Shown here one piece after another: positions 14,048 through 63,721 of a stretch of 64,000 nt of DNA. Source of the DNA: Deltaproteobacteria bacterium (GTDB lineage: Bacteria > Desulfobacterota > Deferrimicrobia > Deferrimicrobiales > Deferrimicrobiaceae); assembly GCA_050263095.1 (NCBI GenBank), contig JBLNEW010000071.1:30175-94174 (forward strand), given 5' to 3'. The notes beneath the pieces are model-generated. The model had not been told where the DNA came from. It did no database searches and was given only the letters and a program-made list of their open reading frames with translations. A program made the translations under genes and the position numbers. Positions within the stretch are counted from its first letter, which is position 1, and each line of letters starts with the position of its first letter.

Positions 14048-16876
14048 CTAGTGCAGGGGCGCGTGGCAGGCCTTGCAGGATTCCTGCTCGTCGCCGCTCC
14101 ACGGGGCAAGCGGCGTCGGATCGTAGGTCTGCGCTTTCATGTGGGCCGAAGCCGCATCGGAGTCGTGGCACCCCATGCAGGCCACGCGGTTGGGGTTGGT
14201 CTGCCACGAGCCGCTGGTCGTAGCCGCCGGGTGGCAGGACTCGCAGTTGCGGATGTTCATCGGGTACGTGATACGCCAGTTGCGCCCGAAGGCCGATGTC
14301 TCCTCGTGCGCTACCGTAATGGTCGGATAGTTCAAGGCCGACCCGTTATGGACCGCGTGCACCCGCTTGGAGATCGGGTGGCCGCCGCCGAAGGAGGCCG
14401 AGGAACCGCTCGGGTCCTGGGCGGAATTGTAGTCGTGGCAGCCGCCGCACTGGTCGACGGCCTGGGCGTTGAAGAGCTTGTTGTGGCGCGCAGGATCGAG
14501 CACGAAGCCCGTACCCGCGCCGCTCCAGTGGCAGGCGGTGCAGCCGTCCGCGATCGGCTTCTCCACGGCCTCCTGCTTGACCTGGAAGGTGGCGACGGCT
14601 ACGGAAGGCGCCCTGTAGTCGACGAACGGCGGCTCGGGAGGATTCCCGGGGCCGCGGCCTGCGTCGCCGAACTCGACGTTGATCACGTACGTTCCGGCAA
14701 CCAGGTCATCGACCGGGTCCAGGGTGTACTTGATCGCCGTCGGGTCGGTGAAATCCGCCTTGGGATCGGTAGCGTTAAGCGTGGTCCTTATACGGGCCTG
14801 GATGGAGCTTCCGGCCCTTTTCCATGCGCCGATGTCGGCGGCGGCGAACATGCCTGCCGGAGCGGCGACGATCTGGATGTTAGGCTGAGCGGTCCTCTCC
14901 TTGACCTTGAGCGTGTTGGTAGCGGTCAACTCCATTTTCGATATGCCGCGGCTGCGGATCGCCAGCTTGCCGGCGTTGGCATTGCCGGGGAGGGCTTCGT
15001 CCACGTAGGCTACGGCGCGGTGGCTGAACGCGGCGTTCGCGTTCAGCGCGGCAGCCGCCGATGCGGGGGTCAAGTTATTGTCGGCGGGCAGGGTGACGGT
15101 GATTGTGCCCGAAGCCAGCTCATCGGCGCCGAAGCCCTCGTATACGAATTCATTATTGTAGGTAAGCATCGACATGCCGGAGTCCACTTTCACGGTGAGT
15201 GCGCGGTTGGCCGCACTCAACGCGCTCAGATCCCACGGTCCGACGTTGTCGCTCGCCACCTTCGCCCGCGCGGCGTAGGTCAGGACCGGAATGCGCTGGG
15301 CGCGCGGTCCGGTCACATAGACGCTGGCGGCCCGGAAAAGGCCGTCCCTGGCCACGGTGCACGAGGTATCTTCGGAGCCGGCCACCGGGATGCATCCTTC
15401 CGCGGTGCCGTCCTCCACCACGGAGGACGGGGCGATGACGGCGCCGGTCACTTTATCCGTAAGCGCGATGCTGATGACCGGGCTCTCGCCGTCCACGAAG
15501 TACTTGCCGTTCGCGGGGGCGGAGGTCGTCAATGCGATGTTGAACTCGGACTTGTTGCGGATATCCTTGGCGGTCCAATCATGGGCTTCGGTGACGGATT
15601 TGCTGAAAACCGTTCCCGTAGGCACATGGCAAAAGGCGCAACCGCTGTCGCTTGTCGCAAGACCGCCGGCATGGTTCGTGCCGGCCGCCCAATCGATCGT
15701 GTCGTGGCAGGAACCGCAGGCCGCGCGCGAGGGGACGGTTTTCCAGTTGTCGGCGTTCGCGCCGCTGCCGGTGTGACAGGCCTGGCAGTTGGAAAGAACG
15801 GCCGGGAAGGCGGCCCCTCCCCAGGAAACGGCTCTCACCGAGTTGCCCCAGAGAATGTACTCGCCGTTGTCGGCGGTTTCGTCCGCGGCGGTATGCGGAT
15901 TGTCGTAATACTTGCCGTCTACCCCCGCAACGCTGGGAAGCTCGTTGCCGGCATGGATCTTGTGGATCATCACGGCCATTTCGATGCTTTCGCCGCTCTG
16001 GGCGTCATAGCTGTCCGGGCTGTGGCAGGCGACGCAGCCTTCCACCGTGACGCGGTCGCCACCGTGCCCCGCGAATTCGGGGCCATGGCACTTCTTGCAC
16101 GCCGCGGTCTCGACGATGTTGCGCGTCGCGGTGACGGCGGAGCCGTCCGGCACGAAATCGAAGTCGCCTTCGCCGGTCGGGCCGTTGTGGCCGCCCATGG
16201 TCACGATGACCCTGTGGGTCAGGTTGCGCTCGTACCCGATCAGCGCCCCTCCGTCCGGAAGCGCGGCCGTCGCCAGGTTCTTCTTGAAGGTGTAGGTGTA
16301 GCTACCGCCGCCGTTGTTTACGAGCGTGCCGTTCGCCGCGCCGGTGCCGCTGCTTTCGCGGTAGCCCTGATTTACCTTGTTCCCGGCCGGCATGGGGAAG
16401 GCGTTGCCCGCGGCGTCCTGTGTGCCGACCACCGTTTCGGTGCGCCAGAGGTAGGGGACCCACCTGTTGTAGCTGAAGGCGCCGCTCTTGGGCGACAGTT
16501 TGAAGATGCCGGCGCCGACGCTGGGGACCGTGGTGACCGCGACGCCGTCCTTCTCGACGGTGAAGTTTACGGTCACCACCCCGGCCGCATCCGCGGTCGC
16601 GCCGGTGACGGTGACGTCTACCAGGTACTTGTTGGCGGCCGCCAGTTCTTCGGCGGCCAAGGCGGTCTCGCCATGCTTGTCGGATATTTTGGCGGCTCCG
16701 GAAAGGCCCGGGGTGCCGGGGTCACCGCCCGCTCCGGGTGATCCGGGCGTACCCGGCGCGCCCGTGGCGCCGGTTGCGCCCGCCGGGCCCGCGGACCCGG
16801 TATCCCCGGAACAACCGCAGAACAGAAACGGTATCGTCAAGGTCAATGCAGCCAGCAGGACAACCAGCTTTTTCAT
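14048..16876 (-). CDS. Outer-surface decaheme c-type cytochrome lipoprotein, MtrC/OmcA family architecture
   Basis: Signal peptide with a Cys lipobox (LFCGC) and ten CxxCH motifs in two blocks of five. Block 1: CKKCH, CVACH, CQACH, CGSCH, CAFCH. Block 2: CTACH, CGGCH, CESCH, CMGCH, CKACH. Each block is preceded by a heme-free beta-rich domain. A Cys-X10-Cys pair (CIPVAGSEDTSC) lies in the second heme-free domain. The antisense 959-aa ORF 13862..16741(+) is an artefact. Confidence 0.85.
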   Translation of the reverse strand: MKKLVVLLAALTLTIPFLFCGCSGDTGSAGPAGATGATGAPGTPGSPGAGGDPGTPGLSGAAKISDKHGETALAAEELAAANKYLVDVTVTGATADAAGVVTVNFTVEKDGVAVTTVPSVGAGIFKLSPKSGAFSYNRWVPYLWRTETVVGTQDAAGNAFPMPAGNKVNQGYRESSGTGAANGTLVNNGGGSYTYTFKKNLATAALPDGGALIGYERNLTHRVIVTMGGHNGPTGEGDFDFVPDGSAVTATRNIVETAACKKCHGPEFAGHGGDRVTVEGCVACHSPDSYDAQSGESIEMAVMIHKIHAGNELPSVAGVDGKYYDNPHTAADETADNGEYILWGNSVRAVSWGGAAFPAVLSNCQACHTGSGANADNWKTVPSRAACGSCHDTIDWAAGTNHAGGLATSDSGCAFCHVPTGTVFSKSVTEAHDWTAKDIRNKSEFNIALTTSAPANGKYFVDGESPVISIALTDKVTGAVIAPSSVVEDGTAEGCIPVAGSEDTSCTVARDGLFRAASVYVTGPRAQRIPVLTYAARAKVASDNVGPWDLSALSAANRALTVKVDSGMSMLTYNNEFVYEGFGADELASGTITVTLPADNNLTPASAAAALNANAAFSHRAVAYVDEALPGNANAGKLAIRSRGISKMELTATNTLKVKERTAQPNIQIVAAPAGMFAAADIGAWKRAGSSIQARIRTTLNATDPKADFTDPTAIKYTLDPVDDLVAGTYVINVEFGDAGRGPGNPPEPPFVDYRAPSVAVATFQVKQEAVEKPIADGCTACHWSGAGTGFVLDPARHNKLFNAQAVDQCGGCHDYNSAQDPSGSSASFGGGHPISKRVHAVHNGSALNYPTITVAHEETSAFGRNWRITYPMNIRNCESCHPAATTSGSWQTNPNRVACMGCHDSDAASAHMKAQTYDPTPLAPWSGDEQESCKACHAPLH
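16691..16807 (-). repeat. Collagen-like Gly-X-Y repeat (13 uninterrupted triplets) encoded just after the cytochrome lipobox
   Basis: Residues 24-62 read GDT GSA GPA GAT GAT GAP GTP GSP GAG GDP GTP GLS GAA. Reading frame verified at both ends against the nucleotide sequence. Confidence 0.7.
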
Positions 16877-33120: not shown

Positions 33121-33232
33121 ATAATGTCCTGAGTCGAAGCGGGAGGGCCGGCCCTCCCGCGCTTTCCCCGAGCGCGATTTTCTCCAATCCATTCAAGTGC
33201 TCACAGGCGATGCGCAGCCTTGGATATGCGCA

Positions 33233-33248
33233 TGGCACGTCTCCTGCT
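33233..33248 (+). promoter_or_regulatory. Sigma-54 (-24/-12) promoter
   Basis: TGGCACGTCTCCTGCT: the GG at 33234-33235 and the GC at 33246-33247 are 12 nt apart, matching TGGCACG-N4-TTGC(A/T) at all but one position. It lies about 40 nt upstream of the AGGAGG-ATG at 33289. Confidence 0.65.
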
Positions 33249-33288
33249 CTTCCCTCCGCCGAAACCAATTTTCTCCACGAAGGAGGCA

Positions 33289-34104
33289 ATGATGAGAACC
33301 ACGACTCGACTCCGCACCATCAGCCGCATGGCATTCGCGGCGGTTCTGATGTGCGTCGTCTCCGCCGGACCGGCCATGGCGACGCCGTCCACGATCGTCT
33401 GGATCCCGTCCGTGGACATCCAGCCGTACAAGACGGTACATCTGACATACGATTCCTACCTCCGTGCAAGGGAGAACCCCGACGGCACCCGGTCCGGCGC
33501 AATCGTCGACCTGGGCCTGACCGGCGGCGTCCTGCCGTTCCAGAAGATCCAGGCCGAGGTCGGTTTCGACCTGATCGATCAGCCCGGAGACGCCGGCAAG
33601 TACCCGCTCTTTTTCAACGCGAAGGTCGGCACGCCCGAGGACGCCTGGTTCAAGGGCTCGCCCGCCGTCGCGGTGGGCGGCTACAACTTCGGGACGAAAA
33701 GCGGCGACCTCCGTAAGGGAGACCCGGCGGCCACAAACCAGAACATAGTCTACGCGATCGCGGGAAAGACCCTTCCCGTCATCGGGCGTCTCGAGGCAGG
33801 CTACTTCGTGGGGAACAAGAAGGTCCTCGTGAACTTCGCCGAAACCGATGGCGCCGGCAACTTCAAGTCCGACGAGAAGGGGATCCTCCTTTCCTGGGAT
33901 CGAACGATCTCAGAGATCTCGGACAAGCTCTGGGCCGGCGTCGACTACCAGGGCAGCGATTCGGGGATCGGCGCCTTCAACTTCGGCGTCTCCTGGGCCT
34001 TCGCCAAGAATGTGAGCGTCATTTTCGGCTACGACATCTACAACGAGAAGAAGTCGGGTGGCGAGAACACCTACACCGTCCAGCTCGACATCAATTTCCC
34101 GTAA
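33289..34104 (+). CDS. Putative outer-membrane beta-barrel (porin-like) protein co-transcribed with amtB
   Basis: Start at the ATG preceded by AGGAGG. Signal peptide (...VVSAGPAMA), alternating beta-strand pattern rich in Gly/aromatics, and a terminus ...YTVQLDINFP. I did not recognise a named family. Confidence 0.5.
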   Translation: MMRTTTRLRTISRMAFAAVLMCVVSAGPAMATPSTIVWIPSVDIQPYKTVHLTYDSYLRARENPDGTRSGAIVDLGLTGGVLPFQKIQAEVGFDLIDQPGDAGKYPLFFNAKVGTPEDAWFKGSPAVAVGGYNFGTKSGDLRKGDPAATNQNIVYAIAGKTLPVIGRLEAGYFVGNKKVLVNFAETDGAGNFKSDEKGILLSWDRTISEISDKLWAGVDYQGSDSGIGAFNFGVSWAFAKNVSVIFGYDIYNEKKSGGENTYTVQLDINFP

Positions 34105-39785: not shown

Positions 39786-40420
39786 ACAGAAAATCGGAGC
39801 TGATCCGGCGGATCGCCGTGGCGTTGCGAGGACACGACGGCGCCAAAACCTCGTCCGGCAGGGCGGCAGGGCATGCGGAATCATGCACACAGGCGGACGC
39901 GATCGCGCTGTTCCGGGACCGGTTCGAAGCCAACGGCGGCAATTTCATCGAAGGCCCCTCCCCGGAGGCGATCCTCCCCGCGCTCGGCGAAGCGCTCCGC
40001 CTTTCGGGAGTGGCCGGCCTGTTCTTCCCGGAAGACGACGCGGGCGCCCGCCAGGTGGCGGAGGCACTCGTTCCGTTCGGCCCGTTCACCCTGGTCTCTC
40101 CCGCCGAAGCCCTGCAGCCGTCCCCGCCGCAAACGGCGGGTTTTCAGACCGCGGATTACGCCGTCGCGGAGACCGGTTCGATCGTCCAGACAAGCCTGGG
40201 GGGGAAAACGCTTCTGCCCGGGCTGCTGGCCGACGTTCACGTCGCGCTTGTCTCCCGGGCGGCGTTCGTGGACCGGATGAACGATTGCATGGCGGCGCTG
40301 GCGAATGCCCCACCCCGCAACATTTCAATTCTCTCCGGGCCCAGCCGGACCGCCGACATCGAGCAGACCTTGACCATCGGCGCGCACGGCCCCAGGAAAA
40401 TGATCGCGGTGCTCATCTAG
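39746..40420 (+). CDS. lutC: Lactate utilisation protein C (LUD/DUF162)
   Basis: ADYAVAETGSIV...SGPSRTADIEQTL motifs. Start chosen at the ATG at 39746; an alternative GTG lies at 39773. Confidence 0.8.
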   Translation: MEEAERNTPVEPLDRKSELIRRIAVALRGHDGAKTSSGRAAGHAESCTQADAIALFRDRFEANGGNFIEGPSPEAILPALGEALRLSGVAGLFFPEDDAGARQVAEALVPFGPFTLVSPAEALQPSPPQTAGFQTADYAVAETGSIVQTSLGGKTLLPGLLADVHVALVSRAAFVDRMNDCMAALANAPPRNISILSGPSRTADIEQTLTIGAHGPRKMIAVLI

Positions 40421-43793: not shown

Positions 43794-44744
43794 CTATCGA
43801 CCGACGCCCCGGAAGTGGTCGAAAGTGCGGGAGAGGCCGGCCGAAAAGGCGACCTTCGGCGAATACCCGAGCCGGCTCTGCGCCATGGAGATGTCGGCAA
43901 GGGAATCGCGAACGTCGCCGGGCCGTGGAGGCTCGAATTTCGGGGGCACCCGCCGCGCCGCCAGCCCGTAAACGGATTCAAGGATATCCAGCAGCGAAAT
44001 CCTCTCCCCGCAAGCGATATTATACACCTTGCCGCACACCGTCCGGGGAGCGCGGCAGGCGCAAAGGTTGGCCTCCACCACGTTGTCTATGTATGTGAAA
44101 TCCCGGGTCTGGAGGCCGTCCCCGTACACGGTCGGCTCAATGCCGGAAAGCACGCACGCTATGAACCGCGGTATTACCGCCGCGTACGTCGACGTCGGGT
44201 CCTGGCGGGGGCCGAACACGTTGAAGTAGCGGAGCGACACAGTCTCCAGGCCGTAAACTTCGTGGAAGATCCGCATGTAGTGCTCGCCCGCCAGCTTTTG
44301 CGCGGCGTAGGGGCTCTTCGGATTGGGCGTCATCGATTCCCGCTTGGGAAGCTCGGGCGTGTCCCCGTAGGCGGAGGAGGAGGCTGCGAATACGACTCGA
44401 CGGACACCGGCGTCACGGGCCGCGATCAGCATGTTGACCGTGCCCCCCACGTTGATGTCGTTCGTGAGGGCGGGGTCCGCCACCGAGCGGGGGACCGACG
44501 GCAGCGCGCCCTGATGGAGGACGTACTCGACCCCTTCCGCCGCCTTGCGCACGGCCGCCATGTCCCGAAGATCGCCTTCGATAAGTTCGAACGCCCCGCC
44601 GAACTTTTCGGCAAACCCTGCAAGGTTCGCGCGCTTGCCCGTCAGGAAGTTGTCCAGAACGCGCACCCGGTTCCCGGCGGATAAAAGGGATTCGGCAAGG
44701 TTCGATCCGATGAATCCGGCCCCGCCGGTTACAAGGTAGGACAT
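43794..44744 (-). CDS. NAD-dependent NDP-sugar 4-epimerase (WbpP/TviC-like SDR)
   Basis: [14 protein letters not shown] and the YAAQK catalytic YxxxK. Paired with a TviB/WbpO-like dehydrogenase upstream. Confidence 0.85.
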   Translation of the reverse strand: MSYLVTGGAGFIGSNLAESLLSAGNRVRVLDNFLTGKRANLAGFAEKFGGAFELIEGDLRDMAAVRKAAEGVEYVLHQGALPSVPRSVADPALTNDINVGGTVNMLIAARDAGVRRVVFAASSSAYGDTPELPKRESMTPNPKSPYAAQKLAGEHYMRIFHEVYGLETVSLRYFNVFGPRQDPTSTYAAVIPRFIACVLSGIEPTVYGDGLQTRDFTYIDNVVEANLCACRAPRTVCGKVYNIACGERISLLDILESVYGLAARRVPPKFEPPRPGDVRDSLADISMAQSRLGYSPKVAFSAGLSRTFDHFRGVGR

Positions 44745-44756
44745 CCGCCCTCCGGC

Positions 44757-46115
44757 TCAGAGTTTTATGACTTTGCCGCCGTTGCGTCCCTTGAGGGCGT
44801 TGCGGGTGTCGACCACCACCCTGGATTCGCGTGCGACCAGCTTGTAATCGAACAGATCGTGGTCGGTCACGAGAACGACGCAGTCGGCCTTTCGCAGCGC
44901 CGCCGCCGAAAACTTCTCCGCCTTCAGCCTGATCCCGTGCTCGGCCAGCACCGGGACGTACGGGTCGCAATAGGAAAGCTTCGCCCCCTTTTTCGACAGC
45001 AGCTGCAGTATGTCCAGCGCCGGAGACTCCCGCACGTCGCTGATGTTCTTCTTGTACGCAACGCCAAGGACAAGGATCCTGGCGCCGTTGACCGATTTCC
45101 TGAACCGGTTGAGCGCATCGCCGACCTTGCCGACGACGAAATGGGGCATCTGCCCGTTTATAACGCCCGCGAGCTCGATGAAGCGCGCTTCGAACCCGAA
45201 CTGCTTCGCCTTCCACGACAGGTAGAACGGGTCCAGCGGGATGCAGTGCCCGCCGATGCCCGGGCCCGGATAGAACGGCATGAATCCGAACGGCTTGGTC
45301 TTGGCTGCGTCGATCACTTCCCAGACGTCTATCCCCATGCGGTCGCACATGAGCGCGATCTCGTTTACCAGTCCTATGTTCACCGAGCGGAACGTATTCT
45401 CGAGGAGCTTGACCGTCTCCGCCACGGTGGCGCAGGAAACGGGATGGACGTTTTCGAGCACGCCGTCGTACAGCGCCGCGGCCACCTTTGAGCACCTCGG
45501 CGTAACGCCTCCCACCACCTTCGGTATGTTCTTCGTCGTGTACATGGAGTTACCGGGATCGACGCGCTCCGGCGAGAAGGCCAGGAAGATGTCCCGCCCG
45601 ACCTTGAGGCCGTCCTTCTCGAACATCGGAGCGAGCACCTCCACGGTGGTCCCCGGGTATGTGGTGCTCTCAAGGACGATCAGCATGTTCTTGTGGATGT
45701 ACTTCGCAACCTGCTCGGCGGCGTTCACGATGTAGGACAGGTCGGGATCCTTCGTCTTGCGCAACGGCGTGGGGACGCAGATGTTGACGGTGTCCGCCTC
45801 GGCCAACGCCGAGAAATCGGAGGTCGCCCGCAGCAGACCGGCTGCCACGGCGTCCCGGATCGCATCGGATGGAATATCGCCGATATAGGACTTTCCAGCG
45901 CGAAGTTGCCTGACCTTCGATCCGTCCACGTCGATGCCGATCACCTGAATGCCTGCGCCGGCATATTCCACGGCCAGCGGCAGCCCCACGTACCCCAGTC
46001 CGATCACGGCGGCCGTGAAGTTTTTCCGCTTCAGCCTGGCTAAAAGGTCGCCATGTTCTTCCGCTCCGGGCATCGCCTGGAAACCTCCTCGCATGAATCT
46101 AGGGAAAAAACCCAC
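44757..46115 (-). CDS. UDP-N-acetyl-hexosamine 6-dehydrogenase (nucleotide-sugar dehydrogenase, WbpO/TviB/WecC-like)
   Basis: AVIGLGYVGLPLA, GPGIGGHCIPLDP (catalytic Cys) and VLGVAYKKN motifs. The start could be the internal Met (MPGAEEH...). Confidence 0.85.
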   Translation of the reverse strand: MGFFPRFMRGGFQAMPGAEEHGDLLARLKRKNFTAAVIGLGYVGLPLAVEYAGAGIQVIGIDVDGSKVRQLRAGKSYIGDIPSDAIRDAVAAGLLRATSDFSALAEADTVNICVPTPLRKTKDPDLSYIVNAAEQVAKYIHKNMLIVLESTTYPGTTVEVLAPMFEKDGLKVGRDIFLAFSPERVDPGNSMYTTKNIPKVVGGVTPRCSKVAAALYDGVLENVHPVSCATVAETVKLLENTFRSVNIGLVNEIALMCDRMGIDVWEVIDAAKTKPFGFMPFYPGPGIGGHCIPLDPFYLSWKAKQFGFEARFIELAGVINGQMPHFVVGKVGDALNRFRKSVNGARILVLGVAYKKNISDVRESPALDILQLLSKKGAKLSYCDPYVPVLAEHGIRLKAEKFSAAALRKADCVVLVTDHDLFDYKLVARESRVVVDTRNALKGRNGGKVIKL

Positions 46116-46169: not shown

Positions 46170-47144
46170 CTAAGCGGATTTCAACTTCTTTATCTCGGAA
46201 ATCATCTCGGGAACGGCCTTGAACAGGTCGGCCACCAGCCCGTAGTCGGCCACCTGGAAGATCGGCGCCTCCTCGTCCTTGTTGATCGCCACGATCACCT
46301 TGCTGTCCTTCATCCCCGCGAGATGCTGAATGGCCCCGGATATCCCCAGCGCGATGTACAGCTCGGGCGCCACGATCTTTCCGGTCTGCCCCACCTGCCA
46401 GTCGTTTGGCGCCCACCCGGCGTCCACCGCCGCGCGCGAGGCGCCGATCGCCGCGTGGAACAGGTCGGCCAGTTCCTCCACCATCTTGAAGTTCTCCTGC
46501 GCCTTGATGCCGCGTCCCGCCGAAACGATCACGCTTGCATCGGTGAGTTCGGGGCGCTCGGACTTTGTCTCCTGCCGGGAAACGAAAGCGCTGCCTCCCG
46601 CTTCCGCGGATACGGACACCTTCTCCACCGGGGCCTTTGCGCCGGCCGCCGGCGCCGGGTCGAAAGCCGTCTGCCGCACGGTGAACAGCAGAGGGCTCCC
46701 GGACATTTCAACCGTCGCGATCGCGTTGCCCGCATACATCGGGCGCATGACGCGAAGCTTGTCTCCGTCCTTCGAAAGGCCGACGATGTCGCTGGCAAGC
46801 GGGGCGTCGAGCAGGCCGGACAGGCGCGGCATGAAATCCTTGCCGAACGTCGACGCCGGGGCGAACACGGCGCCGTATCCCTTTTCCTTGACCACCCCGG
46901 CCACCGCAGGCGCATGTGTCACCGCGAGGTATTTCGCGAATGCCGCGCCCTCGCCCAGGAGCACCTTGCGAACGCCGCAGGCCGCCACCGTGTCAGCCAC
47001 CGCGCCGGCGTCGTCTCCCAGGACCAGCGCGTCGACCTCGCCTCCGGCAAGGCCGGCGTAGGCCTTCGCCGCGGTTATCGTCGCCAGGGTCGTTTTCCTG
47101 AAGACGCCTTCCTGGTGCTCGGCCACCACAAGTATGTCCGCCAT
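46170..47144 (-). CDS. etfA: Electron transfer flavoprotein alpha subunit
   Basis: MADILVVAEH... and the FAD-binding C-terminus IVSAGRG...VGQTGKIVAPELYIALGISGAIQH. Start at the ATG at 47144, preceded by GGGGAGG. Confidence 0.9.
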   Translation of the reverse strand: MADILVVAEHQEGVFRKTTLATITAAKAYAGLAGGEVDALVLGDDAGAVADTVAACGVRKVLLGEGAAFAKYLAVTHAPAVAGVVKEKGYGAVFAPASTFGKDFMPRLSGLLDAPLASDIVGLSKDGDKLRVMRPMYAGNAIATVEMSGSPLLFTVRQTAFDPAPAAGAKAPVEKVSVSAEAGGSAFVSRQETKSERPELTDASVIVSAGRGIKAQENFKMVEELADLFHAAIGASRAAVDAGWAPNDWQVGQTGKIVAPELYIALGISGAIQHLAGMKDSKVIVAINKDEEAPIFQVADYGLVADLFKAVPEMISEIKKLKSA

Positions 47145-47233
47145 CCCGTTTATCCTCCCCCATGAATAACTTAAAGGCCCGGGAACGTTCCCCAACTTTC
47201 GGATTCAACGTTAAAAACGTCCCCGGGGTAAAG

Positions 47234-47986
47234 TTACAGGACCTTCGCCTCGTTTTTCAGCTTGGCCACCAGCTCGGCGACGTCGGCCACCTTCCTCCCG
47301 CCGGCCCGCTCCTTGGGCGGCGCAAGAGAAAGCAGCCGTACCTTCGGCGCGGCGTCGACCCCCAGCGAAGCGGCGGGGACTACCTTCATCTCCTTCTTCT
47401 TCGCTTTCATGATCCCGGGGAGCGACGCGTAGCGGGGCTCGTTCAGCCGAAGATCGGTCGTCACCACGCAGGGAAGCGTCACCTCGATCGTCTCCAGTCC
47501 GCCGTCCACCTCCCGTGTGACGTGCGCCTTCTTGCTGTCTGACACGAATTCCACCTTCGAGGCGAACGTCGCCTGGGGCCAGGAAAGCAGCGCCGCGAGG
47601 ATCTGCCCCACCTGGTTGCTGTCGTCGTCGACCGCCTGCTTCCCCATCAGAACCAGGTCGGGCTTCTCCTGCCCGACTATCCTGGCCATGTGCTTGGCCA
47701 CGGCGAGGCAGTCCAGCCCTTTATCCGCCTCCACCAGAATCGCCCGGTCCGCGCCCATCGCCAGCGCGGTGCGCACCTGCTGCTCGCCCTCCCTGGGCCC
47801 GACCGTGAGGACCGCCACCTCGCCGCCCTGCTTCTCCTTGATCCGCAGCGCTTCCTCCACGGCTATCTCGCAGAACGGGTTGATGACCATCTTGATGTTA
47901 TCCAGGTTGATCCCGCTGCCGTCCGGCCTGATCTTCACCTTCTCGTCCGGATTGGGGACGGGCTTGATCGCCACCAGAATCTTCAC
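47234..47986 (-). CDS. etfB: Electron transfer flavoprotein beta subunit
   Basis: MKILVAIKPVPNPDEKVKI...NPFCEIAVEEALR...LVLMGKQAVDDDSNQVG. Confidence 0.9.
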   Translation of the reverse strand: MKILVAIKPVPNPDEKVKIRPDGSGINLDNIKMVINPFCEIAVEEALRIKEKQGGEVAVLTVGPREGEQQVRTALAMGADRAILVEADKGLDCLAVAKHMARIVGQEKPDLVLMGKQAVDDDSNQVGQILAALLSWPQATFASKVEFVSDSKKAHVTREVDGGLETIEVTLPCVVTTDLRLNEPRYASLPGIMKAKKKEMKVVPAASLGVDAAPKVRLLSLAPPKERAGGRKVADVAELVAKLKNEAKVL

Positions 47987-50102: not shown

Positions 50103-51452
50103 TTACGGTGCGGATGCGTGGGATTCGACCGCCTTGCGTCCCACGGAGTGATACTGGAACCCGCGCTCCTTCATCTTTTTCGCATCGTAGACGTTGCGGC
50201 CGTCGAAGATGACCGGCTGCCGCATCAGGTTCTTCATAAGTCCGAAGTCGGGCTTGCGGAATTCGTTCCACTCGGTTACCAGGACGAGGGCATCGGCACC
50301 CTGGAGCGCGCCGTAGCAGGATTCGGCATACTCCAGCCGCTCCCCGTAACGCTGCCTCGCCCCTTCCATGGCCTCCGGGTCGAATACGACGACCGACGCC
50401 TTGGCCTTCAGCAGCTCGTCGATGATGTAAAATACCGGGGCCTCCCGGGTATCGTCCGTGTTCGGCTTGAACGCGATACCCCACACCGCCACTCGCAGCC
50501 CGTCCAGCTTCCCCTTGAAGTGCGCTTCCATCTTCCGGTAAAACTTCTTTCTCTGCTCCTGGTTGATATCCTCGACCGACTGAAGGATCGAAAGCGGCGT
50601 TCCCGCATCCGCGGCGCTCTTCAACAGCGCCTTTACGTCCTTGGGAAGACAGGATCCGCCGTACCCGAGGCCCGGGAACAGGAACTTGCTGCCTATGCGC
50701 GAATCCGAGCCTATGCCCTGCCGGACCTTGTCGATGTCGGCTCCCACCGCTTCGCAGAAGCTCGCAAGGTCGTTCATGTAGGAAATCTTCATGGCAAGGA
50801 AGGCGTTTGCCGAATACTTGGTCACTTCGGCGCTCTTTTCGTCCATGACTATGACCGGGTTGCCCGCCGGGATGAACGGTTCATAGAGGTCCTGCAGGAT
50901 GGCGACCGCCCTCTCGCTCCGGCTGCCGATCACCACGCGCTCGGGGCGCAGGAAATCCTCGACCGCATATCCCTCCCTCAGGAACTCGGGATTGGACACC
51001 ACGTCGAACTCGATTTTCGCGTCCGTGTGCCTGCGGATCGCCGCGTCGACCTTCTCGCTGGTCCCCACCGGCACGGTGCTCTTGTCGACGATCACCTTGT
51101 ACCCGGTGGCCACTTTGCCCGCAAGGATCTTCCCGATCCCGTCGGCCACCTGCAGGACGTATTTCAGGTCCGCCGACCCATCCTCCCCCGGCGGGGTCGG
51201 AAGGCAAAGGAACACGACTTCCGACTGCAGGACCGCCTCCTCCAGGTTGGACGAAAACTTTATCCTGCCCTTCTTCAGGTTCCGAAGGTATATTTCCTCG
51301 AGCCCCGGTTCGTATATCGTCACGTGGCCCGACGCCAGTTTCCCGACTATATCCGGATTATTGTCCACGCAGTGCACACCATTCCCCCGCTCCGCCAGGC
51401 ACACGCCCGTAACCAGCCCGACATAACCGGTCCCGATAATGGCAACGTTCAT
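50103..51452 (-). CDS. ugd: UDP-glucose 6-dehydrogenase
   Basis: MNVAIIGTGYVGLVTG, GLGYGGSCLPKD (catalytic Cys) and VWGIAFKPNTDD motifs. Start moved to the ATG at 51452; the track start at 51641 adds 63 non-homologous residues. Confidence 0.9.
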   Translation of the reverse strand: MNVAIIGTGYVGLVTGVCLAERGNGVHCVDNNPDIVGKLASGHVTIYEPGLEEIYLRNLKKGRIKFSSNLEEAVLQSEVVFLCLPTPPGEDGSADLKYVLQVADGIGKILAGKVATGYKVIVDKSTVPVGTSEKVDAAIRRHTDAKIEFDVVSNPEFLREGYAVEDFLRPERVVIGSRSERAVAILQDLYEPFIPAGNPVIVMDEKSAEVTKYSANAFLAMKISYMNDLASFCEAVGADIDKVRQGIGSDSRIGSKFLFPGLGYGGSCLPKDVKALLKSAADAGTPLSILQSVEDINQEQRKKFYRKMEAHFKGKLDGLRVAVWGIAFKPNTDDTREAPVFYIIDELLKAKASVVVFDPEAMEGARQRYGERLEYAESCYGALQGADALVLVTEWNEFRKPDFGLMKNLMRQPVIFDGRNVYDAKKMKERGFQYHSVGRKAVESHASAP

Positions 51453-51625
51453 CTGTCCATCTCCGTCTTGGAGGATTTCGAACCCTGGCCCCGAACCGGC
51501 CGCAATGCGAACGAATACTTCCAGCCTGATTATATACATACAGGAATCGTCCCGCCCTGGGAATACCGTTGCTCGCGGGGTTATGGTTAAATATCCGGGC
51601 GGCCGAAAGTTCCGGGGGGCGTTTC

Positions 51626-52447
51626 TTGAAAATTCGGACATGGGCTATCGCCTGCGTGCCGGCGGTAATGATCATCGCCGGTGACGCGTTCGGGCAGCAG
51701 ATACGAGTGTCGGTGAAAGGCGAGGTCTCGCAACCAGGCGAATACGCTGTGCGAAAGGGGGACCGGCTCTCTTCCCTTCTAGAGCGGGCGGGAGGTTTCA
51801 CCGACAACGCATGGATGGACGGAGCGGCGATTTCCCGGCAATCGGCACGATCACAAGCGGAAGCGCGTCTCCGGGACCTGGTATCAATGATCGAGCGCAA
51901 GATTTTCGCCGCGCACGGGGAGGAAGCCCGGAAGCGGGAATTCCTGCTGAAGTTATCGGAGCTTGCGCCGATCGGGTCGATCCCGGTCCGGCTTGCCCAT
52001 CCCCGCCTGCTCAAGGGAAGCGATGGCGACATTCCTCTCGAGGACGGCGATTCGCTTCTGGTGCGGTCGAAGAAAGACCTTGTAGCGGTCATCGGCGCAG
52101 TCAAGGCGCCCCGCACCTTTTCCCCTTTCTCTTCGAAAACGGACCCCGGAATCTACGTTCGGGAAGCAGGAGGATACGCGGAGGACGCGGATCGGAAGCA
52201 CGCCTACCTGGTCAAGGCGGACGGCACGGCGACTCCCCTCTTCCGTGAATGGATACGCTGGAACGCGGGCAAGTCCCGATGGGAGATCCCCTCCTTCAGC
52301 GAGCCCTCGCCGCAGGTCGATCCCGGGGACACGATCGTGGTCCCGCGAAAACCGGCCCGCTCATCCTGGGCGCGCAATATCGACGGCCTCCCTCGGCTTC
52401 TGTTGGAAATCCATGTCCTGACCGGCGTCCGGATCGACCCTCCGTGA
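51626..52447 (+). CDS. Periplasmic SLBB/beta-grasp polysaccharide-export protein (GfcC/YjbG-like)
   Basis: The TTG start gives the signal peptide MKIRTWAIACVPAVMIIAGDAFG. There are two SLBB-like units (VSVKGEVSQPGEYAVRKGDRLSSLLERAGG; VAVIGAVKAPRTF...). No Wza-type Poly_export N-domain or C-terminal helix. Coupled (GTGA) to a YjbH/GfcD-like gene. Confidence 0.6.
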   Translation: MKIRTWAIACVPAVMIIAGDAFGQQIRVSVKGEVSQPGEYAVRKGDRLSSLLERAGGFTDNAWMDGAAISRQSARSQAEARLRDLVSMIERKIFAAHGEEARKREFLLKLSELAPIGSIPVRLAHPRLLKGSDGDIPLEDGDSLLVRSKKDLVAVIGAVKAPRTFSPFSSKTDPGIYVREAGGYAEDADRKHAYLVKADGTATPLFREWIRWNAGKSRWEIPSFSEPSPQVDPGDTIVVPRKPARSSWARNIDGLPRLLLEIHVLTGVRIDPP

Positions 52448-54991: not shown

Positions 54992-55450
54992 TTGATTGCC
55001 GTCCCGCACCCGCTTCTCCACTCAGGCGAATCCGACCAAGCCTTGGGGGAAATCCTCCTTTCCGCGGAATCGATATTCAAGGCGATGAAAAACAGGGATT
55101 TCCCTGGAATATGGTCTGTCCTCTCCGAAGCGTCCCGCAGCTCCATCATCCGCGAAACGTCCGCATCGATCATCCGGTCCGGCGGAAAGGAAGTCGCAAC
55201 GGAAGATCTGCGGAAGGATTTCGTCGAGGGCGGCCCAGTCGCAACCGATTACTGGAACGGATTCCTGGAACACTTCGATCCGGACCTGGCCCTCGAACAG
55301 AGCAAGTGGGAAAAAGGATCGATCGGCGGCGAACGCGCGGAGATCCGCCTGACCTACAGGAATGCGGAAAGGCCGGCGCTGCTGCTGATGTTCCGGGAAA
55401 AGGGCGCATGGAAAGTCGGGCTGATCGAAACGTTCGGAGCGAGGAAGTGA
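54992..55450 (+). CDS. Hypothetical protein
   Basis: 152 aa from the TTG, no family recognised. The frame is open upstream to 54905 and encodes a signal-peptide-like LRTYLPVICAALLIAVPHPLL, but only a CTG (54956) is available as a start. Export status is therefore unclear. Confidence 0.4.
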   Translation: MIAVPHPLLHSGESDQALGEILLSAESIFKAMKNRDFPGIWSVLSEASRSSIIRETSASIIRSGGKEVATEDLRKDFVEGGPVATDYWNGFLEHFDPDLALEQSKWEKGSIGGERAEIRLTYRNAERPALLLMFREKGAWKVGLIETFGARK

Positions 55451-59783: not shown

Positions 59784-61706
59784 CTATTTCTGCCCGCGAA
59801 AGTAATCGATGGTGCGGGAAAGGCCGTCCCGGACCGCGACCTTGGGCTCCCATCCGAGCTTTTCCTTGGCCAGCGAGATGTCCGGCCGGCGGCGGACCGG
59901 ATCGTCCTGCGGCAGGGGGCGGTAGACTATCTCGGAGGAGGACCCTGCAAGCTCCCTGATCATTAGCGCAAGCTCGCTGATGGTGTTTTCGGCGGGATTG
60001 CCCAGGTTCACCGGGCCCACCATCTCGTCCTGGTCCATCATCGCGATCATTGCGGTGACCAGATCGTCCACATAGCAGAAGGAGCGCGTCTGCTCGCCCG
60101 TACCGTAAAGCGTTATCGGCTGGTTTTGAAGCGCCTGGAGTATGAAGTTGGAGACGACCCTGCCGTCGTTGGGGTGCATCCTCGGACCGTATGTGTTGAA
60201 TATGCGGATCACTCGGATCTGCAGGTTGTGCTGACGGTAATAGTCGAAAAAGAGCGTCTCGGCGCAACGCTTGCCCTCGTCGTAGCAGTTGCCGCAAAAT
60301 GCGGCCCGCCCGTGGCGGCGCACGCAGATTACGTGATTCTTGACGTCCACGCAGTAGACTTTGCCCGCGTATCGAATCCGTTCCGGCTCCACCAGGTTCG
60401 CCTCGGCCGGCGGCCGGAGGTTGACGCGGTAGAGATCGCGGCCGGGCGTGAGCGATTTCGACGCCGCGTACCCGCACCGCAGCGCCAGCTCCTGCACGTC
60501 ATCGGCGAGACGCTCCGACTTGGTCCAGTAGCACACACTGTCGCCGCGCCGGGATCCGTCGCCGAGGATGAGGGCATCGAGCAGGATCGTCGATTGACGG
60601 CGCGAGAGGCCGAGGAGCTCGCGCGGGATGTACTTGTCGCCCGCCTTGCCGAGCGGCGCAAGTATTTCGGCGAGCTGCTTGCTGCAGATGCGGAGCTGAT
60701 GGTCGTCGGAGGTGAAAAAGTTGAATCCGAGGCGCTTAAGGCAGCCGATCATCCGGTCCCGGCCGTCGCCCTCCGCCTGCGCGATGAGAACGTTGTAGTC
60801 CGCAACATCGTAATCGCGGCCGCTCACTTCGCGCACCCTGCGCCGGACGTGGACACAGCCTTCCGATATGTAATAACCGAGGAATTCCAGCCAGTCGTCC
60901 ATCCGGATGCGCGTCTTTCGGACTTTTGCATCGCGCGGCGGCGCGTCCAGGTCGAACCATTCGACCTCCTCGCCCCCAAAGGCGGCACCGGTCGGGACTC
61001 GCCATCCATTCCAGTAACGCGGCTCGTCCGCGCGCAGGAACCGCATCTTGCCCGTCTTGCCGCGCACGTACATGCGGTGGTCGGGGGTAACCGCGAAATC
61101 GAACTTGGAGTTGGCAAAGCGCAGCAGCTCGCCCACATACGGGTAAGCGATGATTTCATCGGGGATGTGGTACTCGACCTCGCCGTTCCCGGTCAAGGTT
61201 GCGACCGCCGTGCCCGGCTGCAGCGCAGGGAATGCTATCCAGCCCTGTTCGGTGAGGATCTCCGTCTCGGCGTCGTAGCATGCACGCGGGCCGATCGGGT
61301 TGACGTTCCCCCAGTAGCTCTCCTTCTGCGGGTGCTCCGACGGGTCGCCGTAGACTTCCGAGGTCGAGGCCTGCAGGATCTTCACCTTGAGCCGCTTGGC
61401 CAATCCCAGCATGTTGATGGCGCCGTGAACGTTGGTCTTCGTGGTCTGCACGGGGTCGAACTGGTAGTGGACGGGGGAGGCGGGACAGGCGAGGTTGTAG
61501 ATCTCGTCGACCTCCACGTAGAGCGGCCAGGTTATGTCGTGGCGCATGAACTCGAACATGTGGTTGTCCATCAGGTGGAGAATGTTCTGCCTGCGCGAGG
61601 TGAAGAAGTTGTCGACGCACATGACCTCGACACCACGCGCGAGAAGCCGTTCGCAAAGGTGAGTGCCGATGAAGCCCGCCCCGCCTGTAACAAGGATACG
61701 TTTCAT
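59784..61706 (-). CDS. UDP-glucuronate decarboxylase (UDP-xylose synthase) precursor carrying an intein
   Basis: Exteins: [21 protein letters not shown]...STSEVYGDP...NPIGPRA | [20 protein letters not shown]...[10 protein letters not shown]...EPKV. Together they give about 309 aa of typical UXS/SDR sequence, interrupted by a 331-aa insert. Confidence 0.9.
60288..61280 (-). mobile_element. Intein with a LAGLIDADG homing-endonuclease domain (331 aa)
   Basis: Cys1 ([10 protein letters not shown]), TxxH block (TPDH), two dodecapeptide motifs ([14 protein letters not shown]; [12 protein letters not shown]) and a block-F-like [14 protein letters not shown]. It ends ...AFCGN followed by a +1 Cys. 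Boundaries verified at nucleotide level: TGCTAC at 61280 downward; AAC|TGC at 60288-60290 and 60285-60287. Confidence 0.85.
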
Positions 61707-62677
61707 TTGAGGGCGCTCTCCCTTCGCGCATTTTCATACCAATCGATCGTCCTGCGCAGTCCTTCCTCGAAGGAAGTCCGCGCGACGAAACCGAACTCTT
61801 CTTTCGCGCGGGCCGTGTCCAGGAAGCGGCGCGGCTGCCCGTCGGGCCTGGCGAGGTCGCGCACGATCCTGCCCTCGAATCCCGTCAGCCGGCGAATCAG
61901 CTCGATCAGGTCGTTGATTGCGATCTCCCGCCCCGCGCCTATGTTGACCGGCTCGGGCTTGTCGTACCGCTCCGTCGCCAGGACGATACCTTCGGCGGCA
62001 TCGTCCACGTAAAGGAATTCCCTCGAGACCGGAACCCCCTGATGGAAGCCGCTGCCCCAGACCTCGACCTGCGCCGCTCCGGAGTCTCTCGCGTCCACGA
62101 ACTTCCGGATGAGGGCCGGGATTACATGGGATTTCTCCGGCTCGAAGAAATGGTCCCCCGGACCGTACAGGTTGACCGGCAGGAGATGGACCACGCCGAA
62201 GCCGTACTCGTCCCGGTACGCCCGGCCCATCACCAACAGCATCTTCTTGGCGATGCCGTAGGGGGCGTTGGTCGCCTCGGGATACCCTTCCCAGAGATCG
62301 TCTTCCTTGAATGGAATCCGCGGCGGCCGGAAGGGGTAAGCGCACACCGTGCCGATCTGGACGAACTTCCTGACTCCGGCCTTTCGGGCCTCCTCCATGA
62401 GATGGATTCCCATTGTCGCATTGTCGAAGAACAGGGCGCCGGGATGGGCGCGGTTCCAGCCGATCCCGCCCGCATTGGCCGCGAGGTGGATGACGATTTC
62501 ATGCCCCGCAACCGCCCTTGCGCATGCCTCCTGCAGCCGCAGGTCGCATTCGGCCGACCGCGGTATGGAGATGTCCTCCCGCCGGGCACCCCGCTCGACG
62601 AGCCGGCGTACGACCGGATCCCCGAGGAACCCCGACCCGCCGGTGACCAGGATCTTTTTCCCCTCGAAGAAACCCAT
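61703..62677 (-). CDS. fcl: GDP-L-fucose synthase (GDP-4-keto-6-deoxymannose 3,5-epimerase/4-reductase)
   Basis: [12 protein letters not shown], the YGIAKKM catalytic motif and NLYGPGDHF. Directly downstream of gmd, overlapping the UXS start by 4 nt. Confidence 0.9.
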
Positions 62678-62680
62678 CGA

Positions 62681-63721
62681 TTACAGCCTGGAGCCGACCG
62701 GGATGCCCTTGGCGGCCAGAGCCTTGCGCCCCTCGCCCGGGGACGTCAGGCCCGCGTCCTCCATGTCGGCGTCGACCATGATGCGCACCAGTTCCCTGAA
62801 TGCGACCTTCGGCTCCCACCCAAGGAGCTTCCGCGCCTTCGAGGCGTCGGCTATCAGGTTCTCGACCTCCGTCGGCCGGAAATATTTCTTGTCGATCCTT
62901 ACGTGCCGCTTCCAGTCCAATCCCGCGTAGGCGAACGCCTCTTCCACGAAATCCCGAACCGAGTTGGACTGCCCCGTGCCGACGACGAAATCGTCTCCGC
63001 CGTCGTGCTGGAGGATGCGCCACATGGCCTCGACGTACTCGAACGCGAAGCCCCAGTCGCGCCTGGCGTCGAGGTTTCCGAGGAAAAGCTCCTCCTGCTT
63101 CCCCGCCTTGATGGCGGCGATGGCCCGGGTGATCTTGCGCGTCACGAAAGTCTCCCCCCGCCGCGGCGACTCGTGGTTGAAGAGTATTCCGTTGCTGGTG
63201 AACATGCCGTACGCTTCGCGATAATTGACCGACATCCAGTAGGAATACACTTTTGCCGCCCCGTAGGGGGAACGCGGGTAGAAGGGGGTCTTCTCGCTCT
63301 GCGGCGGCGGCGAGGCGCCGAACATTTCGCTCGAAGAAGCCTGGTAGTACCTGGCCTTGACTCCGGCCCTTCGCACCGATTCGAGGATCCGGGTCGTTCC
63401 GAGGCCGGTGATGTCGCCGGTATACTCCGGGATATCGAAGGAGACCCGGACGTGGCTTTGCGCCCCCAGGTGGTAGATTTCGTCCGGCTGGACGTTATAG
63501 ATGAGGTTCGTAAGCTGTCCCGAATCGGAGAGGTCTCCGTAGTGCAGGAACATGCGTGCGCCTGGCAAGTGAGGGTCCACGTAAATGTGCCCGAGCCGCC
63601 CGGTGTTGAAGGTGGAGGCCCGGCGTATCAACCCGTGGACCTCGTAGCCCTTAGCCAGCAGCAGCTCGACGAGATACGAGCCGTCCTGGCCGGTGATCCC
63701 GGTGAGAAGCGCCTTCGGCAT
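62681..63721 (-). CDS. gmd: GDP-mannose 4,6-dehydratase
   Basis: [53 protein letters not shown] and [17 protein letters not shown]. Confidence 0.95.

Follow-up and report, generated by a model that had tools for sequence, protein, structure and literature searches.

What is a stretch of 331 amino acids doing one residue ahead of the catalytic tyrosine of a sugar-nucleotide enzyme? The question is raised by a 640-aa open reading frame (ORF) on contig JBLNEW010000071.1 of a Deltaproteobacteria bacterium (assembly GCA_050263095.1), within a stretch of 64,000 nucleotides that was analysed as a whole and is referred to here as the window. A first-pass annotation, made from the letters of the window, had read the insert as a full-length class 1 intein in a UDP-glucuronate decarboxylase (UDP-xylose synthase, UXS). 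Evidence from sequence, profiles, predicted fold and comparison with relatives agrees with that proposal, and we consider it very likely that the insert is a functional, mobile intein of class 1 type, carrying a LAGLIDADG homing endonuclease, in a UXS gene. Judged from its sequence, the intein probably splices and probably homes.

The host enzyme and the insertion point

The precursor is built from the following parts.

59784..61706 (-): precursor ORF, 640 aa, 72.8 kDa, uninterrupted; UXS N-extein, putative intein and UXS C-extein
61281..61706 (-): N-extein, aa 1-142, with the Rossmann GxxGxxG and the UXS residues Thr115/Ser116/Glu117; ends ...NPIGPRA
60288..61280 (-): putative intein, precursor residues 143-473, 331 aa, 37.6 kDa; predicted Hint domain split by a LAGLIDADG endonuclease
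60285..60287 (-): Cys+1, first residue of the C-extein
60270..60284 (-): catalytic Tyr-Asp-Glu-Gly-Lys, directly after Cys+1
59784..60287 (-): C-extein, aa 474-640 plus stop, with the UXS arginine within GRVVSNF

Once the insert is removed in silico, what is left is a 309-aa protein that aligns without gaps and from end to end with human UXS1 (4gll/2b69, E 3.6e-126), bearing out the earlier description of the 640-aa ORF as collinear with UXS on both sides of a 331-aa insert at 60288-61280. A 14-residue stretch spanning the GPRA/CYDEGKR junction (here and below, a slash in a sequence marks the junction) is identical in the spliced protein and in human UXS1, and the Epimerase and GDP_Man_Dehyd halves recognised by Pfam flank the insert on either side. 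The active site of the human enzyme comprises Thr118/Tyr147/Lys151 together with Ser119, Glu120 and Arg277 (Eixelsberger et al. 2012, PMC3438964). All six of these residues are kept, as Thr115, Ser116, Glu117, Tyr144, Lys148 and Arg185 in the numbering of the spliced protein. The assignment of the host gene to UDP-glucuronate decarboxylase, an enzyme belonging to the extended type of short-chain dehydrogenases/reductases (SDR), is supported by sequence, and the corresponding activity is predicted.

The insertion point lies between Ala142 and Cys143, one residue ahead of the catalytic Tyr of the SDR YxxxK motif; the +1 Cys adjoins the Tyr of YDEGK, exactly where the insertion had been placed at first reading. 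Thr, Ser and Glu are therefore parted from Tyr, Lys and Arg. Because the active site is split in this way between the two exteins, we infer that the unspliced precursor would be inactive, and it is reasonable to infer that xylose supply would depend on splicing.

Anatomy and predicted fold of the insert

Within the insert the following blocks can be recognised.

61239..61280 (-): N-terminal block; Cys1 is the putative N-terminal nucleophile, present in 118/118 family members
61065..61094 (-): block with Thr65-x-x-His68 (TPDH); B:12 is Met70, not Trp
60411..60920 (-): predicted LAGLIDADG homing-endonuclease domain, approximately intein residues 121-290, with Pfam LAGLIDADG_3 and I-DmoI fold matches
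60855..60893 (-): LAGLIDADG motif 1, intein residues 130-142, LGYYISEG; predicted catalytic acidic residue Glu140
60552..60584 (-): LAGLIDADG motif 2, intein residues 233-243, LILGDGS; predicted catalytic acidic residue Asp241
60309..60365 (-): block F, intein residues 306-324; F:4 is Cys310, His316 is the block F histidine, followed by Arg321-Arg322
60288..60305 (-): block G, AAFCGN; penultimate Gly330, terminal Asn331, G:5 is Cys329

Every motif quoted in the first-pass annotation is present, namely the Cys start (intein residues 1-10), TPDH, the two LAGLIDADG motifs, block F and the FCGN/C end. The intein scores 38.4 bits against Pfam LAGLIDADG_3 (cutoff 22.5). Scanned as a single sequence against Pfam and NCBIfam, it matches models of intein-containing DnaB and GyrA weakly, and PDB sequences searched in the same way gave matches at noise level only. 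An AlphaFold model and a family profile were built on an alignment of 45 homologues. The model has a mean pLDDT of 95.5 and a pTM of 0.92, and its best PDB matches in Foldseek are TliVMA (2e-17), PhoVMA, PI-PkoII (2cw7), PI-SceI and PI-PfuI, at E-values of 2e-17 to 1e-10. Moreover, its central domain resembles I-DmoI (E about 1e-6 to 1e-7). Searched against PDB sequences, the family profile recovers PI-PkoII (1.3e-22) and TliVMA (2.3e-20), and it also matches inteins that consist of a Hint domain only, namely the split NrdHF intein and the RecA mini-intein. The modelling thus places a Hint fold in the insert and predicts a single-chain, two-motif LAGLIDADG nuclease with an I-DmoI-like fold.

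The solved archaeal and yeast endonuclease inteins, TliVMA/PhoVMA (7qsu, 7qss, 7qst), PI-PkoII (2cw7), PI-PfuI (1dq3) and PI-SceI (1vde), have the same Hint and nested-nuclease fold as the model, at a TM-score of about 0.6-0.68. However, they are only 10-19% identical to the window intein, which at 331 aa is the smaller protein. The GC content is 64% in the intein versus 60-61% in the exteins, and GC3 is 0.82 versus 0.82-0.87; base composition does not set the intein apart from its host gene, and the idea of compositionally foreign DNA was dropped.

Splicing residues and the wider intein clade

Conservation was read from an alignment of 118 full-length relatives from genomes and viral contigs. 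The splicing residues are close to invariant (Cys1 100%, Thr65 99%, His68 100%, Asn331 99%), the +1 residue is Ser, Cys or Thr in 100%, and the acidic residues of the nuclease are likewise conserved (Glu140 97%, Asp241 98%). With regard to class 1, the window copy has Cys at position 1, the TxxH motif and Asn followed by Cys+1; the penultimate His is absent. Textbook class 1 inteins have a block F Asp and a penultimate His, neither of which is present in the window intein. The penultimate residue is Gly in 98% of the relatives, F:4 is Cys in 94% and Asp in ~6%, and the Arg321-Arg322 pair is nearly invariant. Several relatives differ from the window copy at His316, with for example VPSG, VPNG or VPKG in its place. 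On sequence grounds, the penultimate Gly, the F:4 Cys and the Arg-Arg pair read as clade-wide traits, not as lesions of the window copy.

A precedent exists in the Bethlehem RDF intein: its penultimate residue is Gly, its splicing goes to completion, and the change G316H slows it; a block F His can substitute for the role of the penultimate His (Kelley et al. 2016, PMC5050341). By this analogy the penultimate Gly would be no defect. The earlier suspicion that the variant might harm Asn cyclisation does not hold up, given its conservation in the clade and the Bethlehem precedent. The Bethlehem RDF (phosphoesterase) intein (317 aa, ...TGN/S, block F VWC) and that of phage Alice gp3, a cluster C nucleotidyltransferase (...HGN/T, block F IVC), align with the window intein from end to end at 22% and 27% identity, respectively. 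All three have Cys1, a LAGLIDADG endonuclease, Cys at F:4 and a GN end. In contrast to the window intein, the other two reside in phage genomes and in DNA-metabolism hosts, and they are followed by Ser or Thr at +1 instead of Cys. The Bethlehem endonuclease was toxic when cloned in E. coli, and the clone recovered was an inactivating mutant (PMC5050341).

The clade to which these inteins belong is large. An exhaustive search of 1.84 billion cluster representatives returned 5,707 proteins at E<=1e-10, of which 864 reach E<=1e-30. IMG/VR contributes more than 557 relatives, 162 GenBank phage records hold one, and at least 60 different insertion sites are occupied in our sample. By Pfam label or source name, the hosts include ThyX, GTP cyclohydrolase I, MCM, the RNA polymerase beta subunit, ribonucleotide reductase, and dCTP and dCMP deaminases. 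Flanking motifs alone point to DNA polymerase B, terminase, anaerobic ribonucleotide reductase and a papain-like peptidase as hosts on viral contigs. Given the many host sites in the clade, UXS joins the targets of a promiscuous intein lineage that is associated with viruses.

Inteins in sugar-nucleotide enzymes have some company in the literature and in sequence collections. An intein in an archaeal UDP-glucose dehydrogenase is listed by Novikova et al. 2016 (PMC4760082); it too has an envelope or sugar-nucleotide host, but the enzyme, the fold and the site differ from those in the window. The UXS/extended-SDR site is absent from the main-text tables of the same paper. A literature search found nothing that links inteins to UXS or to extended-SDR sugar enzymes; three candidate papers (PMC2853384, PMC3542560, PMC5371798) were coincidental co-mentions only. 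The annotations of the homologues flag no intein either, reading plainly 'UDP-glucuronate decarboxylase' or 'GDP-mannose 4,6-dehydratase'. What we take to be InBase entries, the 'Ter Ndse-1/-2' inteins of a Trichodesmium erythraeum NDP-sugar epimerase/dehydratase, could not be confirmed: the homologue searches, one of them seeded with a cyanobacterial copy, returned no Trichodesmium protein, and 'Ndse' was absent from the literature search. If the entries are as described, two inteins in one such enzyme would agree with the two-intein UXS genes noted below in Prochloron (P0036, L028) and in L017. A related intein does occur at another site (...VKLG/CYDDKTEVLT...) in a different extended-SDR protein of 541 aa from a JGI metagenome (P0037), which means that SDR sugar enzymes were invaded by the clade on more than one occasion.

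Occupied sites, empty sites and mobility

One genome per prokaryotic species was scanned for inteins at the exact UXS junction (xRx/C...GN/CYDEGK, CYDEAK or CYDESK), which is occupied in 28 species genomes spanning at least 5 phyla and two domains. They include four metagenome-assembled genomes (MAGs) labelled Deltaproteobacteria or 'bacterium', with 85-90% intein identity, and many filamentous cyanobacteria, two isolates among them (Microcoleus sp. LEGE 07076, Phormidium sp. CCY1219). Others are a Pyrinomonadaceae acidobacterium, one Nomurabacteria genome of the Candidate Phyla Radiation (CPR), one Woesearchaeota genome and one unclassified archaeal MAG. Moreover, viral UXS genes carry an intein of the clade at the identical site, GPRS/C...GN/CYDEGKR: L044 (L044:3001-3963, on the 209-kb contig IMGVR_UViG_3300035208_003026) and L047/L048. 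Identities of 44% and 33% to the window intein were obtained for these viral inteins. As at least 28 species genomes and public viral contigs are occupied, the UXS insertion site is not rare, and viruses that carry uxs are plausible vectors across phyla.

Empty sites were found close to the window host. Its intein-free UXS relatives, up to 95% identical to the window exteins, are labelled Candidatus Deferrimicrobiaceae, and its intein-bearing relatives are labelled Deltaproteobacteria. One intein-free allele, L043 (GCA_040960215.1), is syntenic with the window: its exteins are 95% identical in amino acids and 90% in nucleotides, the gene order is the same (gmd, fcl-like, uxs, NusG-like, Wzi, CapD-like, then YjbH) and the neighbouring proteins are 80-94% identical to their window counterparts. 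The empty site reads ...GGCCCGCGGGCG/TGCTACGACGAGGGG... (5'-AACCCGATCGGCCCGCGGGCG/TGCTACGACGAGGGGAAGCGTTGC across the junction), and the window exteins match both flanks. The alignment with intein-free orthologues proposed at first reading thus yields an exact CYDEGK junction, in L043 also at the DNA level. A per-60-nt identity profile of the window exteins against the empty allele revealed no clear co-conversion tract around the site.

The relatedness of the inteins does not follow that of their hosts. The nearest intein, L004 (90%), resides in a host allele (91/81%) more distant from the window than is the empty allele (95%). In comparisons with L004, L001 and L002, the intein dS (0.44-0.71) is lower than the dS of both exteins (0.63-1.16); with L003 it lies below that of the C-extein only. 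These values fit a common ancestry of the inteins that would be more recent than that of the host gene. Across phyla, the window intein is 66-73% identical to the cyanobacterial and acidobacterial copies and the exteins are 54-70% identical; the intein is more conserved than its host, and horizontal spread is therefore indicated. With the four close relatives as reference, the intein has a dN/dS of 0.10-0.125, its endonuclease domain one of 0.07-0.11 and the exteins one of 0.08-0.13, so that the intein is under purifying selection comparable to that on the host gene. Another genome, L022 (CAZTFC010000056.1), combines exteins at 89%/80% identity to the window's with an intein of only 61% identity (dN/dS 0.33), a pattern which suggests an independent invasion or replacement by another intein lineage at the same site. 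Taken together, the empty-site polymorphism, the discordance, the low dN/dS and the wide distribution indicate what would be a functional element moving between alleles and lineages.

One copy appears to be decaying or misassembled. In P0012/L126:5001-6455 (ENA ERZ25039602 contig_42287), an in-frame deletion of residues 1-159 of the UXS intein fuses GPRA to DYNILIAQ... and removes Cys1, block B and LAGLIDADG motif 1, leaving a 172-aa remnant at the active site. This copy would be unable to splice; either the allele is decaying or the assembly is at fault. A 588-aa 'Gmd' call beside it was considered as a second intein host and rejected, being an over-extended ORF call only.

Some further irregularities were noted among UXS relatives. 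In P0036 (Prochloron sp. SP5CPC1) a second, unrelated intein lies downstream in UXS, after ...RIFN, and starts SLTGD; in L028 and L017 a second UXS intein is read solely from a C-extein of ~600 aa. The first intein ends in Gln instead of Asn (...CGQ/CYDEGK) in P0036, L017 and L019. The top-scoring match to the spliced UXS, a 427-aa ENA protein (P0103), has part of the UXS core duplicated internally, with the segment PASPVHYQ...RIFNTY occurring twice, and may be a tandem duplication or a chimeric assembly.

A direct repeat of ten nucleotides brackets the intein.

61271..61280 (-): direct repeat TGCTACGACG, 10 nt, copy 1, at the 5' end of the intein
60278..60287 (-): direct repeat TGCTACGACG, 10 nt, copy 2, at the start of the C-extein

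Both copies are exact and encode Cys-Tyr-Asp, the C-extein copy being the CYD of CYDEGK. CYD is a conserved start of clade inteins in unrelated hosts also, and capture of the UXS site with the help of microhomology may thus lie behind the coincidence. When the sites in the sample are distinguished by C-extein tripeptide, 'CY' starts 3 of the 21 distinct sites with Cys at +1.

Proposed mechanism and alternative explanations

We propose that translation would yield a 72.8-kDa precursor with a split SDR active site. Cys1 would undergo an N-S acyl shift, Cys+1 would take over the N-extein by trans-thioesterification, and Asn331 would cyclise without a penultimate His, probably helped by His316 and/or Arg321-Arg322. 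An S-N shift would then give the native ...GPRA-CYDEGK..., the products being an active 35.3-kDa UXS and a free 37.6-kDa intein. The endonuclease of the free intein would cut intein-free uxs at the conserved GPRACYDEGKR-coding sequence, and repair of the cut allele would copy the intein in, which is homing.

Five points weigh against this interpretation. First, the profile searches proposed in the first-pass annotation have a divided outcome: LAGLIDADG_3 is above its cutoff, but Pfam Hint_2 reaches 18.7 bits, under the cutoff of 28.4, and covers the first 31 residues only. The matches of the family profile and of the fold to solved inteins are strong, and a Hint-domain hit was therefore obtained by that route. 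Second, with a Cys at F:4 in place of the class 1 Asp and no penultimate His, catalytic details may deviate from the textbook. Third, purifying selection on the nuclease domain could mean that splicing needs its structure, and not that the nuclease is active. Fourth, the 10-nt repeat leaves the occupied allele with +1..+10 at the N-extein/intein junction, and hence with much of the presumed target's 3' half, which bears on how the allele escapes self-cleavage. Lastly, the genome may hold a second, intein-free UXS gene outside this window, to which the analysis is confined.

The alternative that survives best is that the intein splices but is immobile, with a dead endonuclease, inherited only vertically and awaiting decay. 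We regard this as unlikely, albeit less so than any other alternative. Dead nucleases are common among LAGLIDADG inteins, the repeat makes an active nuclease a potential danger to its own allele, and the in-frame deletion in P0012/L126 indicates that decay occurs in the lineage. However, neither catalytic acidic residue is lost here and each is kept in 97-98% of the family, the dN/dS of the endonuclease domain is as low as that given above, the relatedness of intein and host is discordant, with intein dS under extein dS in most close comparisons, and a near relative has an empty site. These observations argue for a mobile intein.

Domestication is a further, improbable alternative. In this case conditional splicing, blocked for example through a disulfide or metal at Cys1, Cys+1, Cys329 or Cys310, would gate UDP-xylose and the composition of the exopolysaccharide. 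The host is a pathway-entry enzyme of a polysaccharide cluster and the intein does sit at its active site, four cysteines lie at or near the splice junctions, intein and host gene have equally low dN/dS, and conditional splicing in response to redox state or metals is documented for other inteins (PMC6195587, PMC7360933). But nothing in the present evidence is specific to regulation. The same residues are conserved across at least 60 unrelated host sites and are therefore family traits, not adaptations to UXS; moreover, close relatives manage without the intein, and insertion at an active site is the usual pattern of selfish inteins. A broader form of the idea, in which the intein acts as a post-translational gate and the 'Cys-F:4 / Gly-Asn' clade uses a non-textbook catalytic arrangement, appears to us just as improbable.

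Class 3 inteins typically have no nucleophile at position 1. Splicing of a class 3 kind, in which block F Cys310 and not Cys1 would form the branched thioester, is more doubtful still than a switch. In its favour, Cys at F:4 is the class 3 nucleophile (PMC5050341) and is the prevalent residue in the clade. However, the WCT triplet of class 3 inteins is not found: F:4 is Cys310, but B:12 is Met70, with Trp in 0/118 relatives, and G:5 is Cys329, being Cys or Ser and not Thr in the clade. Cys1 is invariant, and the members with Asp at F:4 fit this alternative poorly. Moreover, in Kelley et al. the Bethlehem RDF intein, a relative, is examined among phage inteins of class 1 as one that lacks the penultimate His. 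Finally, a permanent structural insertion domain, or an artefact of assembly or annotation, is effectively refuted already: in spite of the weak Pfam Hint match and the annotation of homologues as plain decarboxylase or dehydratase, the Hint and LAGLIDADG fold matches are of high confidence, nucleophiles stand at both junctions, intein-free orthologues show the insertion to be exact, the insert recurs in 28 independently assembled genomes, and a 331-aa domain one residue before the catalytic Tyr would be hard to square with activity.

Gene neighbourhood

The intein-bearing gene lies in a polysaccharide cluster. The following features were located in the cluster and elsewhere in the window.

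62681..63721 (-): GDP-mannose 4,6-dehydratase (gmd), upstream of the UXS gene in the same cluster
61703..62677 (-): GDP-fucose-synthase-like SDR (fcl-like), directly upstream of the UXS gene
50103..51641 (-): UDP-glucose dehydrogenase, expected source of UDP-glucuronate, the substrate of UXS
33220..34104 (+): ORF without Pfam match, coding-like GC3
39881..40240 (-): ORF without Pfam match, coding-like GC3
54992..55450 (+): ORF without Pfam match, coding-like GC3

The start of the precursor ORF shares 4 nt with the stop of the fcl-like gene, and NusG-like, Wzi, CapD/PglF-like and YjbH polysaccharide genes lie between the UDP-glucose dehydrogenase gene and UXS. From its gene content, the cluster fits a branch from UDP-Glc through UDP-GlcA to UDP-Xyl that would feed an exopolysaccharide or capsule. 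No transposase, integrase or phage family was found in Pfam scans of the other 54 predicted ORFs, three of which had no match at all, and the window has no tRNA genes and no Rfam matches, introns included. At the depth of these Pfam, tRNA and Rfam scans, it therefore holds that the intein is the sole mobile-element signature in the window, as had been noted at first reading.

Two further observations concern the window at large. The UDP-glucose/GDP-mannose dehydrogenase paralogues at 44757..46115 and 50103..51641 are less than 7 kb apart, and one of them adjoins an epimerase (43794..44744) and an ETF alpha/beta pair (46170..47986). In addition, 14048..16876 (-) encodes a multihaem cytochrome of the outer membrane, 942 aa long and of MtrC/OmcA type, a hint that the host organism may be capable of extracellular electron transfer.

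Conclusions

In summary, the window holds a genuine, well-preserved intein outside the usual replication and repair hosts, one that cuts a sugar-nucleotide enzyme in two at its catalytic centre. In kind this is a standard endonuclease-bearing intein, in a host and at a site that are uncommon but have parallels. No concept is changed, as the expected mechanism is standard protein splicing and homing. The finding matters for annotation too, since 640-aa precursors of this kind pass as plain dehydratases or decarboxylases and are often cut short by gene callers. Moreover, occupied and empty alleles in the same gene order, bacterial, archaeal and viral copies and a decayed copy together constitute a natural test set for homing across phyla and for splicing without a penultimate His. 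Engineers may find in the Gly-Asn clade, with its more than 5,700 representatives at the E<=1e-10 threshold, a large reservoir of inteins that have hardly been characterised and in which Cys, Ser or Thr can serve as the +1 residue.

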